Of a stretch of DNA of 64,000 bases, positions 35,851-63,720 are shown piece after piece. The notes under the pieces were generated by a model, which was not told the origin of the DNA, searched no databases, and saw only the letters and a list, made by a program, of their open reading frames with translations. The position numbers and the translations under genes are program-made. This DNA is from Lama glama (taxonomy: Eukaryota). The first letter of the stretch is position 1, and the number at the start of each line of letters is the position of its first letter. The stretch is from assembly GCA_028534125.1 (NCBI GenBank), contig CM052816.1, positions 3,908,001 to 3,972,000 on the forward strand. The letters are read 5' to 3'.

Positions 35851-36744
35851 GGAAAACTATCCAGTCAGTTCTGTCTAGGTTTTTTTTAAACAATTAGACA
35901 TTCATTTATTAGATCATCATAAGAAACAGTGGTTTGGATTTTGTCATTTTAATGAATGGTAAGAGAAATAGAAGTCAGGAGATCTATTAAACACAGGTAG
36001 AGAGAGCTGTAATTTATCAAGGACCTATCATGGGCCCAGTACTGATCAGGTACTTGATATCCATTGTCTCATGTATGTGGTGTGCACAAAACTGTCAAAA
36101 GCATTTGACAGTTACCAAATACATATTGAAAGCTGGCTGCACACCAGACAATGGGCCATGGCTACAAAGATGAATAAATAGAAAGTCATCCCTGCTCCAG
36201 AGAGGTTCCCAGCATGCTGGGATGCTAAGCTGGGTCAGGCAACCTTGCCGTCTACTTTGGTTCAGGCATCTGCAAAATGAGGACTTCTGCACAGGGGACT
36301 CCTAAGATTCCTCTCGTCTAGCAGCGAGGGATTTCACACTCACTGGACTAAGTAAGATCACGCCACCTATTGATAACTTCCAATCCTTTTAAGTTTTGCC
36401 ACTTAATAACCACTTGTCAATGACAGTGTAGATGATCAATACAGCAGTACTGTGGGAGGTCTCTGAGGCCAAATTACTTGGACTGGGTGGCTGGAATGCA
36501 CTGGCAGGAGTAGCAGCCCTCTACAGAGTGAGATCTCACATGGTCAAGGCAAGGCTCGAAAGACAAAATGGTAGAGTTCAAACAGGAAGATGCCTTTCAG
36601 TCCTAAAGAATACCTATTTCGGTGCATTAATTTCTATACTGAGCCCTAGAAGGAAAAGGTGACGGAGTTCATGGAGTTCATGAGTTCCCTGACACTCACG
36701 CTAGGGTTTTCTGCACTGCCTCACCATGTGTCACACTGATTAAT

Positions 36745-38316: not shown

Positions 38317-38816
38317 NNNNNNNNNNNNNNNNNNNNNNNNNNNNNNNNNNNNNNNNNNNNNNNNNNNNNNNNNNNNNNNNNNNNNNNNNNNNNNNNNNNN
38401 NNNNNNNNNNNNNNNNNNNNNNNNNNNNNNNNNNNNNNNNNNNNNNNNNNNNNNNNNNNNNNNNNNNNNNNNNNNNNNNNNNNNNNNNNNNNNNNNNNNN
38501 NNNNNNNNNNNNNNNNNNNNNNNNNNNNNNNNNNNNNNNNNNNNNNNNNNNNNNNNNNNNNNNNNNNNNNNNNNNNNNNNNNNNNNNNNNNNNNNNNNNN
38601 NNNNNNNNNNNNNNNNNNNNNNNNNNNNNNNNNNNNNNNNNNNNNNNNNNNNNNNNNNNNNNNNNNNNNNNNNNNNNNNNNNNNNNNNNNNNNNNNNNNN
38701 NNNNNNNNNNNNNNNNNNNNNNNNNNNNNNNNNNNNNNNNNNNNNNNNNNNNNNNNNNNNNNNNNNNNNNNNNNNNNNNNNNNNNNNNNNNNNNNNNNNN
38801 NNNNNNNNNNNNNNNN
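38317..38816. other. Assembly gap (500 N)
   Basis: Run of exactly 500 N. Confidence 0.99.
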
Positions 38817-40011: not shown

Positions 40012-40200
40012 AATTGTGAAGTTCATGACTTTGAGAATCCAGATCGTCATGGCCAGGTTCACCAGGATTAAAATCATCAGGAGAAGGACAAAGAAGTAGA
40101 GGCATCTTTTCCGCCAGCCGTAAATCCCCACTTTGTAAACCTGTGGCCCCTCGGAGCTGGGCATGGTGCTGCGGTGGTGTGTGTACTGTTCCTGAGGCAT
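40012..40200 (-). CDS. SGCD: Delta-sarcoglycan, first major coding exon (189 nt, 63 codons; cytoplasmic N-terminus and transmembrane helix)
   Basis: Translates as [63 protein letters not shown], recognised as the delta-sarcoglycan N-terminus. Flanked by acceptor tgtttcAG (40202-40201) and donor GTAAGT (40011-40006), phase 0. Confidence 0.97.
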
Positions 40201-40236
40201 CTGAAACAGACAGGGCGAGAGAGGAGCACATTAAAC

Positions 40237-40240
<4 letters not shown>

Positions 40241-40272
<32 letters not shown>
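40241..40272. repeat. (GA)n microsatellite, read as (TC)n on the SGCD strand just upstream of the coding-exon acceptor
   Basis: About 16 GA units, 40 nt from the acceptor AG. Confidence 0.95.
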
Positions 40273-60208: not shown

Positions 60209-60709
60209 AAATACTTTTCTCTGTATTTAATTCATAAATTTGCTTTAGTGTGACAGCTGGTTAAGAACGATTAAAATTGAGAGGTAATAGCTAGGTGGGT
60301 ATTTTTGGTTTGTACATATGTGAACGGTCGTATAATAAAAATTGTTAAATCAACAACATGGAGATGGATCTCTTCCCCCAACCTTGTTAAAAGGGGTTTA
60401 AGGGGTCTTTATGTTACTCAAACTCAAGAAATTCTGTATTACTGGATGGCCCTAATCCGTTCCAGATGGTCAAATGCAGGATTCCATGAACCTTCTTACC
60501 TTATGAAACTAATACTAAACACTTTCACCAACAATGTGGTACATGCCCTTGGAGATGTTTTTAAAATTAAAAAAAATAATAATCAAGTAAATAAATCCAT
60601 TCATTAAAATAAAGCATACATATCATTTCATACCCTTCTCAAAAGTGACTTAATGATGAGGTGTCCACAGGCAGGGCCCAGGCAAACTCTGCAGACTTCT
60701 AGCCCTCAC

Positions 60710-60756
60710 CCATCTCCACCTGGTCCCTTCACTCAACACTCCCAGCAGGACTATCT
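60710..60756 (-). other. SGCD: SGCD small 5' exon (homolog of human exon 2 carrying the upstream ATG)
   Basis: Minus strand reads ttgttccgtccAG|AGATAGTCCTGCTGGGAGTGTTGAGTGAAGGGACCAGGTGGAGATGG|GTGAGG. It closely matches my recollection of the 46-nt human exon 2 ending in GGTGGAGATG and lies about 2.2 kb from the putative exon 1. Confidence 0.8.
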
Positions 60757-62932
60757 CTGGACGGAACAACTATGGGTTAAAAATAAGGCCTTAGGAGCCT
60801 GCTCCCTCCTGGCTTAGGAAACCTGAAGCCGTGGGCAATGACCTTCTTACAAAATGTGTTTTCTGATTACTTCCAGAAGGCACAGCAGGGCAGTCTGACC
60901 ATGGGCTTTTCTATTAGGAAGAGAGTAAAACAATTCTCTCCACTGAGGCCATGGTTTCGCCTTCAACTGGAACAAATCGGTGCCTGCCGGGCTTCACTAT
61001 TCGAGTATGTGTGTTTCACTCCTGTGCACAGGTCTCTCCCCGCTGCCCCGTGTGTGGTGTGGCCACCCCTCCCTCCTTGTAGCCTGTACCTCCGCCCTGG
61101 ATTTCTTCTCCTCCACTTTCCCACCTCCTTTTCGTTTTTTGTTTTTTCTTTCTTTGCAAATGTCAAGGGAGCTTGATTTTCTCCTCTTACGTGTCTAAAA
61201 GAGGCAACTGTAGAGCTCCTTCCAAGTTCAGGCAATGCTGTTCGTACCCCTGCCACCTGAAGCTGCTGTTTCACGGCTGCTCTGCTCAAAGCCTGGCGAG
61301 CGCTAAATTTAGAGGAGTGTGACATTAGCGCTCACAGAGTCTCCTTTTTCACTGTTGGTGTGCTGGGCTGCAGTTCACATTGGCTCCTAATCTGTCTTGG
61401 CATCTTGCTCACTCAGTAGGCAACACGAGCGCTGTCAAAGTGCCTCCTTTCTTGCCCCACGTCCAGCAGTTCCCAAACTCTCCCCATTCCAACCCAACCC
61501 AAAGAGGAGGTTCATGACGAGGATATTTGTGTGTATGTCTTAGGAGACGAATCCCTGCCGCCAGTCATTCCCCAATTCCTTCCTTTAAGTGCAAAACTAT
61601 GGAGAAAGTGAAACTGCTGGCCGAGAGGGCTGACCTCCTACCAACAAAACACAATGCCTGCCCAGTTATCCTGGGTCTTACACCAACAAAGGTAGGACGA
61701 AGTCCAGCCCCTCGACCCTTTATTCACCCATTAATCAGCTACTTGTTGAGAGATCTTAAAACTGAAGTAAACACACACCTGTTTTTACAGAGGTCCACCC
61801 TATAGGTGGACCACTCTTCTGCTCTTCAAGAAGTAGCCAAGAGTCCATTCATCCATCTGTTTCCCGAGCCAGACTCTGGGCCAAGCCCCTCTGGAAAACA
61901 CCACTGCTGTCACTGATTGCTCCTCCAGCAATCACAAAGCTGTCGTGAGATTTAGTCCAGCTGTTTCTGAGCTGAACCAGTTTCTTAAACGCAATTATAT
62001 TATATTGTGCATTTGCTAAATGCTAAGCTTTGAATAAGGGGAAGCTTTCATGGCGGGGGTGGGTAAAAATCTACGCTGCCTTATAACTGATAGATATGAA
62101 AAATAATTGTTTAAAATTTGATTTTTTAAAAAAACACTCTTTTCAGGAAGGGGTAAAATGCAATCAATCGATGAAATAAAATTTCCACTATTAAGTCTCT
62201 ATCTTTTAACAGTGATTTTAAGTAAATTACTGTTTTGTGTTACTCCTAAGTTGTCTATATTTCATACAATATAAGAGTATTTTTTGACAGATGAACTGCT
62301 GGTTACTTGTTCAACTCAGAAAAGTTGAAAATGATGATAGAAACAGAATGACAAATGTAGATCCAGCATATTTCTAGGCAAATATATCACTGGGCTCCTT
62401 AATGACAGTCAAAATCCCACATAATAATAAAAGGTACCAGGAACTTGTACGCACTTATCTGTTCCGACATTCTGAAAGTGTAATCCAAAATAGAAACTTC
62501 AAACTCCGATTCCCTCCTAAAATAAGAGCCAATTTCTGCTAAAAATGCCCGTCTCCAAACTCTCAGGAAGCAAAGAACACAGCTTCATCTACAATGATCT
62601 TCCCTGCCCACGACTGTCCTTTCATGTAGAAAAGTCACAGAAAGTTGGAGCAGGCTCAGAGCACAAGAGTTCACATACTTTTCTCTTTCACAAGCATATT
62701 GCCAGCCAAATCCTAACTTTCCAAAGTGACTCTGCCCTGCTGAAAATCAGATCTGGGAGGGGGCTGGGGACAGAAAGCTCACAAGCCCACACCAAATGTT
62801 TAAGTGACGGAGTTCTAACTTGTTCGCACACCCCCCCAACCCCATCCCCGAAACGCAGAGTACTTGCCAACAAACAGCAGGCTTAGAAAGCGAAGGGAAA
62901 GCGTGCACATGCAAGAATGAGCAGTCCCCTAC

Positions 62933-63100
62933 CTCTCTGGTCTGCTGCACAAAGAGGCTGGCTGGTGAAAATCACCCACGGTTCGGGCGAGCGCGGAGAG
63001 GCTGGAAGGGGGCGGCCCTCGGCCAGCTGGGGGTGAGCAGGCCCAGCCCGTGCTCAGAAGCTGCCCCAGTCAGATTTTCCAGCTGGAGACTTGCAGCCAA
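62933..63100 (-). other. SGCD: SGCD first non-coding exon (5' boundary/TSS uncertain)
   Basis: Donor GAGAG|GTAGGG at 62933/62932. The GC/CpG-enriched segment (ctgactggggcagcttctgagc...cagctggccgag) resembles the recalled human SGCD 5' UTR. Confidence 0.7.
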
Positions 63101-63720
63101 GTCCCTGCCCATGCCTGAAGAATTTCCTGGACAGCATTCCCGTTCTTTTTCTGACTGCTTTGAAACCATACTCTGTGCTTCAATACGGCTTTGTCAGGCC
63201 AACTCCCAGCTACTGGGCTGCCTCCAGCTCTCAATGGGAAACACATGTGTCGAGCACAGACTCGCTACCCTGCATCCATGCCCGTGGCGTCTGCTGGGCT
63301 CACACTCACGACCACAAAGCCAACGGCTTCTAGAACCAGTTCTGCTTTCTCGGCCCTTTTCCACCCAGCTGGCCCCTGCTCCGTGGTGCTAGATCCTGGA
63401 GTTCAATCCTCTCTTCCTTAAGCTCATCCCTGCCCCCATTTAACTGGCTCCATCTGCTCACAGTCCCCAGCTGACCCCTGTAACTCCCCTGGAGCTCTCG
63501 CCAGCCCTGATAAGGAGCCTATTACAGCTGAGAGATGGGCATTCTAATTGGATCTCCCCTACCTGCCTGATGCCTCTGTCTTTGCTCAAAATTTCAATTG
63601 CTAGAGGGGAAGCCATATTTTTAGCATTTCCAGACTGGTTCAGGACTTCAGAGTTGTCCCCCCATCCTGATATGTGCATCTCTTGCTGCTGCACCTAAAA
63701 ATAATGCAGTTATTTCACAG
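63000..63720 (-). promoter_or_regulatory. Putative striated-muscle promoter of SGCD
   Basis: CAGCTG E-boxes at 63024, 63080, 63366, 63468 and 63525; GC box 63008-63015; CATTCC 63135-63140; GATA TGATAA 63508-63513; MEF2 consensus CTAAAAATAA 63695-63704; near-MEF2 site 63615-63624. Confidence 0.65.

Follow-up and report, generated by a model that had tools for sequence, protein, structure and literature searches.

What happens to SGCD, the gene for delta-sarcoglycan, when the ATG that ends its short second exon falls out of frame with the start codon of its first coding exon? To address this question, we analyzed a 64,000-nucleotide stretch of llama (Lama glama) DNA, hereafter called the window (positions 3,908,001 to 3,972,000 of contig CM052816.1, assembly GCA_028534125.1; all coordinates below are positions within it), which carries the first exons of SGCD on the minus strand. 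Loss of SGCD causes limb-girdle muscular dystrophy and cardiomyopathy, and for this reason the 5' leader of the gene matters for the reading of non-coding variants. An earlier note on this DNA had proposed that exon 2 brings a strong, out-of-frame start codon into the mRNA, and that inclusion of the exon could act as a switch for translational repression or nonsense-mediated decay (NMD), or yield a micropeptide; as a whole, this interpretation is partly supported by our analysis. The reading that we favor, with moderate confidence, is that a real one-base expansion of a G run in exon 2 has created a tolerated overlapping upstream open reading frame (uORF), which would dampen the output of exon-2 transcripts as a near-neutral change of the lineage and not as an evolved switch.

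On the minus strand, the exons follow in the order exon 1 (62933–63286), exon 2 (60710–60756), and first coding exon (exon 3, 40012–40200), with a distance of 20.5 kb between exon 2 and the first coding exon. The exon 2 homolog is a non-coding cassette exon of 47 nt with AG/GT borders. Its acceptor region (cccatagttgttccgtccag, 60757–60776) is pyrimidine-rich and ends with cag; the acceptor reads gttccgtccag/AGATAG (the slash marks the exon border), the donor reads GAGATGG/gtgagg, and both canonical splice signals (AG acceptor and GT donor) are intact. Comparison of the window with the protein of another mammal by tblastn revealed that the main-frame translation of the exon is identical at 11/17 residues to residues 60–76 of the seal model P0244 (E=0.001), a short match that gives modest support. 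The upstream ATG is located at 60711–60713 and the donor GT, read from the sequence as TGG/GTGAGG, at 60708–60709. The last base of the ATG, one extra exon base (60710), and the first donor base form a run of three G (60709–60711). A second GT lies inside the exon at 60718–60719 (CAG/GTGGAG), 10 nt upstream of the outer donor, and its use would produce an mRNA lacking the upstream ATG. Splice-site strength was compared by eye with the textbook donor consensus, MAG/GTRAGT; the outer donor has the +4 A and the +5 G, both of which are absent from the inner GT, making the latter the weaker candidate.

When exon 2 and the coding exon are joined by their coordinates, the spliced product reads AUG-G-AUG, with the upstream ATG positioned 4 nt before the main ATG (40198–40200) and in another frame; owing to the one extra G, the terminal ATG of exon 2 does not form an in-frame MM start. 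The upstream ATG stands in a strong Kozak context (gtggagATGg, with G at −3 and G at +4), while the main ATG after exon 2 stands in a weak one (agatggATGc, with T at −3 and C at +4). The coding exon consists of 189 nt, or 63 codons, in phase 0 at both ends, and is bordered by tgtttcag/ATGCCT and ACAATT/gtaagt. In the protein search, all 63 residues encoded by it matched SGCD of pig, manatee, narwhal, and others (100% identity), and the main frame is 95–100% identical across placental mammals (shrew 86%, marsupial 94%). The same exon can also be read in the shifted frame, in which the upstream ATG opens 64 sense codons with no stop in the coding exon. Exon 4 (102 nt) lies outside the window, on an unplaced contig of the same genome (G000:C273603, locus L007, about 1507–1608), and starts with GATGGA after a good acceptor; the further SGCD exons after it were located on contig C1. 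Because exon 4 starts with GAT, the shifted frame closes at a T/GA across the exon 3/4 junction, formed by the last base of the coding exon (40012) together with the GA that opens exon 4; this stop lies 102 nt before the junction that follows. Under the NMD rule, a stop codon triggers decay when it lies more than about 50–55 nt upstream of a later exon junction, so that the stop of the shifted frame is NMD-competent by its distance of 102 nt. In the modeled exon 1-2-3 join, the upstream AUG thus lies in a frame different from that of the main AUG, reaches no stop before it, and ends inside the main coding sequence, which is the anatomy of an overlapping uORF.

These results bear out the anatomy of the window described in the earlier note. 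The exon lies inside its bracket of 60706–60760 and ends ATG-G/GTGAGG, the strong upstream and weak main contexts were recovered on the joined exons, and enumeration on the same join reproduced the 64-codon stop-free frame. Its statement that the next exon begins with GAT, giving the T/GA, holds for exon 4 of this genome. The claim of one G more than in human stands at the protein level, in that the human proteins P0258 and P0259 start with MM; the 46-nt length of the human exon is the figure given by that note.

Comparison with the SGCD models of other animals points to the direction of the change. We assembled 309 proteins from protein searches and cluster look-ups (40 of the 285 members of the largest cluster were read), and 24 of them start with MM, 22 from mammals and 2 from fish. 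The mammalian MM models come from 13 primate genera (Homo, Pongo, Symphalangus, Macaca, Papio, Colobus, Trachypithecus, Pygathrix, Piliocolobus, Cebus, Saimiri, Callithrix, and Aotus), from Rhinolophus (two models) and Hipposideros armiger among bats, from the narwhal (Monodon), and from Muntiacus; they include human isoform 2 (NP_758447.1, P0258) and the human X3 model (P0259). The lengths of 290 aa for human SGCD isoform 1 and 289 aa for the mouse protein, quoted in the available part of a paper on SGCD-deficient pigs (PMC7280178), fit an MM start. In the human tandem start (isoform 1, 290 aa, MM), a short upstream exon of the same gene likewise ends with ATG right before the coding ATG; there, however, the two ATGs are adjacent and in frame and either gives a working protein, whereas here the extra G puts the first one out of frame.

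A protein that reads through exon 2 in the frame of the window was found once among the 309, namely the Mirounga leonina isoform X1 model (XP_034868853.1, P0244), which reads ..TRWRW/M at the junction. This model carries a 75-residue extension, the last 15 residues of which, ending with TRWRW before the M, match exon 2 of the window in the main frame, with 11/17 residues identical once the flanks are counted. Since the TRWRW/M frame is otherwise impossible, the exon 2 of this seal must also end with ATGG, so that its frame with respect to the coding exon is that of the window. The seal differs in that an exon-1 ATG is in frame and gives the predicted extension (a gene model), while stops close that frame in the window. 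Since MM starts are spread over primates, bats, a whale, and a deer, the simplest view is that the in-frame state is ancestral, and therefore the extra G reads as derived and recurrent; the shifted state looks to have arisen twice, with one G added to a short G run each time. Judged from the MM-start models of other mammals, the site of the inferred one-base expansion in the window is the three-G run at the end of exon 2.

Taken as a mechanism, the expansion at the 3' end of exon 2 would have moved the terminal ATG from the in-frame (MM) position to an out-of-frame one. Inclusion of exon 2 in the mature mRNA and initiation at its AUG are predicted from the splice sites and the sequence; scanning ribosomes on such an mRNA would meet AUG-G-AUG, where the strong upstream and the weak main start would compete. 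Ribosomes starting upstream would make a non-conserved 64-residue peptide and end at the TGA across the exon 3/4 junction, and termination 102 nt before the next junction would expose the mRNA to NMD. The net outcome would be less delta-sarcoglycan per exon-2 mRNA, while mRNAs joining exon 1 directly to exon 3 would escape. The minimal spacing of the two AUGs would soften this effect and the strong-over-weak contexts would sharpen it.

Published reporter work, as far as its available text goes, describes the elements of such a competition. Large yeast reporter sets, together with a HeLa test of downstream AUGs, show that two AUGs compete when they are no more than about 17 nt apart (PMC9743702); in yeast, an upstream AUG inhibits more if its own context is strong and the main context weak, repression weakens as the upstream AUG nears the main AUG, and out-of-frame starts reduce the mRNA via NMD (the same paper). 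The AUG-G-AUG of the window resembles the close AUG pairs of these yeast and HeLa reporters and of two viruses, turnip yellow mosaic virus (TYMV, as cited in PMC9743702) and PEMV2 (PMC6294492), for which the accessible sections describe AUGs in different frames a few nucleotides apart that compete, with context and distance deciding the outcome and NMD following out-of-frame starts. Unlike the viral pairs, which make two needed proteins, the upstream product here carries no sign of conservation. In the portion available, a survey of human 5' untranslated region (5'UTR) variants reports that new upstream AUGs, including those creating overlapping reading frames, are under negative selection (Whiffin et al. 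2020, PMC7253449). The anatomy of that variant class, in which the frame of an upstream AUG runs past the main AUG without meeting a stop and ends inside the coding sequence, is also that of the window; as that class is described there, the present case differs in being an old AUG whose frame was changed by a 1-nt indel at a splice junction, apparently fixed in the assembly rather than a rare variant. Since the shifted state appears fixed in the lineage of the window and in a seal despite selection against upstream AUGs, its cost is probably small. Overlapping out-of-frame uORFs are a well-known class, but this one arose in an unusual way, when an old tandem start was shifted in frame at a splice junction. 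No report of an SGCD upstream ORF or of the frame of the exon 2 ATG was found in the literature searched on the delta-sarcoglycan/SGCD leader, first exon, and uORF.

Several points weigh against the tolerated overlapping uORF. The third G stands in a G run, and the assembly is very fragmented, with 1,072,352 contigs. The comparison set consists of gene models and not of aligned DNA; single-M starts, found in 134 of the 309 proteins, are uninformative on exon 2, and no protein named for the lineage of the window is among the 309, an absence that is weak given the share of the largest cluster read. At a spacing of 4 nt, initiation at the main AUG may be higher than its context predicts and the measured effect could then be small, by analogy with the reporters in the available text of PMC9743702. 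The six further ATGs of exon 1 may also make the added cost of the exon 2 ATG minor. Work by Kozak from 1995 reportedly holds that the first AUG wins even with a second close behind.

The explanation that survives best beside the tolerated uORF, unlikely as we consider it, is that the upstream ATG has no effect, because exon 2 is rarely or never spliced in or because the inner GT is used, so that the ATG never enters the mRNA. The presence of this second GT only 10 nt upstream of the outer donor would allow it, models of other mammals include forms without exon 2, and among the 309 proteins there is no exon 2 read-through protein, transcript-derived or otherwise, from the lineage of the window (the same partial reading of the largest cluster makes this absence weak). 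However, the canonical AG acceptor and GT donor of exon 2 are both intact, and, by eye, the inner GT is missing the important +4 A and +5 G of the outer donor. Human, seal, and other models also make use of the homologous exon.

The evolved switch of the earlier note, in which inclusion of exon 2 would be regulated so as to repress translation and set off NMD, with productive mRNA coming from skipping, appears decidedly unlikely. Part of its basis holds up. Both splice forms occur among the models of other mammals, with exon 2 in the seal P0244 and without it in ..TRE/M proteins; the latter join exon 1 to the coding exon, which indicates that exon 2 is skipped in the transcripts of some mammals. 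This direct join occurs in 4 of the 309 proteins, three models from two Saccopteryx species (sac-winged bats) and one from Meriones (gerbil), in agreement with the exon 1-to-3 skipping that the note had proposed, and in the window it would give the main ATG a better, adequate context (agagagATGc). The overlapping-uORF anatomy, the strong-over-weak AUGs, and the NMD-competent stop are likewise as a switch would require. What does not follow is the step to an evolved device. The shifted state is absent from the 22 mammalian MM models, so that any switch would be a side effect of recent origin rather than a conserved device, and the short distance between the AUGs weakens repression (PMC9743702, in the text available). 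A variant of this idea, in which the one-base shift was gained independently here and in the southern elephant seal and kept as a splicing-set rheostat of delta-sarcoglycan dosage, inclusion diverting ribosomes and adding NMD, strikes us as improbable.

Equally improbable in our estimate is that the third G was introduced by a sequencing or assembly error within a homopolymer, the true state being the in-frame MM. The base does lie inside a G run, and, in this very fragmented assembly, a search with the flank beside exon 2 found a single copy of the locus, leaving only one copy for comparison. Against an error, a run of three is short for homopolymer miscounting, and the curated seal model P0244, from an independent species, has the same frame, so the shifted state is biologically possible.

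Dual coding, in which the 64-residue shifted product would be a functional micropeptide as the earlier note had suggested, has a very low probability. The shifted frame is open across the exon both in the window and in the horse model P0290 (UniProt A0A9L0R0W5, Ensembl-derived), which translates the coding exon in the same shifted frame. Such openness is nevertheless expected by chance: the shifted frame was open in 2264 of 20,000 uniform synonymous recodings of the same 63 residues (11%) and in 7324 of 20,000 third-position-matched recodings that followed the exon's own usage (37%). The stop-free frame is therefore within chance and unremarkable. In this one comparison species, the horse version of the shifted peptide differs from that of the window at 11/63 residues, against 95–100% identity of the main frame in placentals. 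The peptide is not conserved; changes that are silent in SGCD freely alter it. The start codon for the peptide is also absent in the 22 mammals with MM. Taken together, nothing supports a function for the 64-residue peptide. The horse model returns to the SGCD frame via an extra 53-nt exon. As a candidate for such a frame-restoring cassette exon, the window contains a weak look-alike at 36023–36082 on the minus strand (E=0.12), which has no AG at the matching acceptor place and was rejected.

Least credible of all is an N-terminal extension in which an exon-1 ATG reads through the shifted exon 2 into SGCD, as the 75-residue extension of the seal X1 model would illustrate. The main frame stays open across all of exon 2 and for 56 codons before it, but this stretch lacks any ATG and is bounded by a stop at 63056, and the in-frame exon-1 ATGs at 63275 and 63137 stop within exon 1. 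Together, these features rule out a seal-type extended protein from an AUG start, and the reading could be rescued only by a non-AUG start.

Under the tolerated overlapping uORF, the locus indicates that, in a healthy lineage, one base is enough to break the frame of a human-type tandem start. Should inclusion of exon 2 be common, a start codon in the wrong frame 4 nt before the main AUG is survivable; the locus would then be a natural test of close start-codon competition in mammalian muscle, in a disease gene, and a caution against calling every such SGCD 5'UTR variant damaging. If exon 2 is rarely included, the change would simply be neutral drift in the leader.

The exon 1 homolog is a non-coding leader with the donor GAG/gtaggg at 62933/62932; its outer coordinate, 63286, is the start of similarity and not a transcription start. 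It was located on the minus strand by tblastn with the N-terminal extensions of SGCD models from other mammals (P0055, E=9e-26; P0047, E=5e-25; P0043, E=2e-20). Script enumeration identified six upstream ATGs in it (63112–63279; first bases at 63279, 63275, 63246, 63169, 63137, and 63112), three of which stand in a strong context. All six are closed by stops inside exon 1, the last of which starts at 62974, and they would be present in the mRNA if transcription starts upstream of them. A paper on the cardiomyopathic hamster, in its available part, describes an animal lacking the SGCD promoter and first exon (PMC2660610), suggesting that expression in hamster muscle is driven from an upstream first exon.

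In automated models of meerkat, two sac-winged bats, panda, and seal, exon 1 is translated into a long extension of the N terminus. Analysis of the window indicated that a frame shift near 63170 and a stop at 62974 interrupt this extension frame; the in-frame stops are at 63056 in the exon 1-2-3 form and at 62974 in the exon 1-3 form, and the open stretch lacks an ATG. Such extensions in automated models look like leader sequence and not like conserved coding sequence, so that in some SGCD models they would stem from leader exons with non-conserved frames. Other, short in-frame N-terminal additions were seen in many tetrapod SGCD models (P0025, P0124, P0273/P0278/P0281/P0287, P0064/P0071, P0067, P0069, and P0072), including MQ and MC, MKMAPEIVSE in buffalo, and MLQ, MLGK, and MDWILK in birds; upstream exons ending in or containing an in-frame ATG seem common in SGCD. 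In P0309 (Logan, 373 aa), a transcript-derived protein, exon 3 is spliced to exon 4, but translation also covers the intron that precedes the coding exon, which points to intron retention or to an internal start in the RNA of some mammal.

Around the first coding exon, a 500-N gap lies at 38317–38816, 1.2 kb downstream, and the scaffold is therefore incomplete in that intron; exon 4 was found on its small unplaced contig, away from the contig of the window. A search of sequencing runs revealed that DNA runs of four organisms contain all sampled words of the coding exon region, and that RNA runs contain 0.52–0.56 of them, about the exon-only share, a result that speaks to the coding exon and not to exon 2. 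The search of the llama's own genome also matched paralogous sarcoglycan genes on contigs C30 and C13 (loci L003, L006, L008, and L009), with exons 50–66% identical, probably zeta and gamma. A CT dinucleotide repeat of about 46 nt, at 40221–40266 on the minus strand, directly precedes the pyrimidine tract and acceptor of the coding exon.

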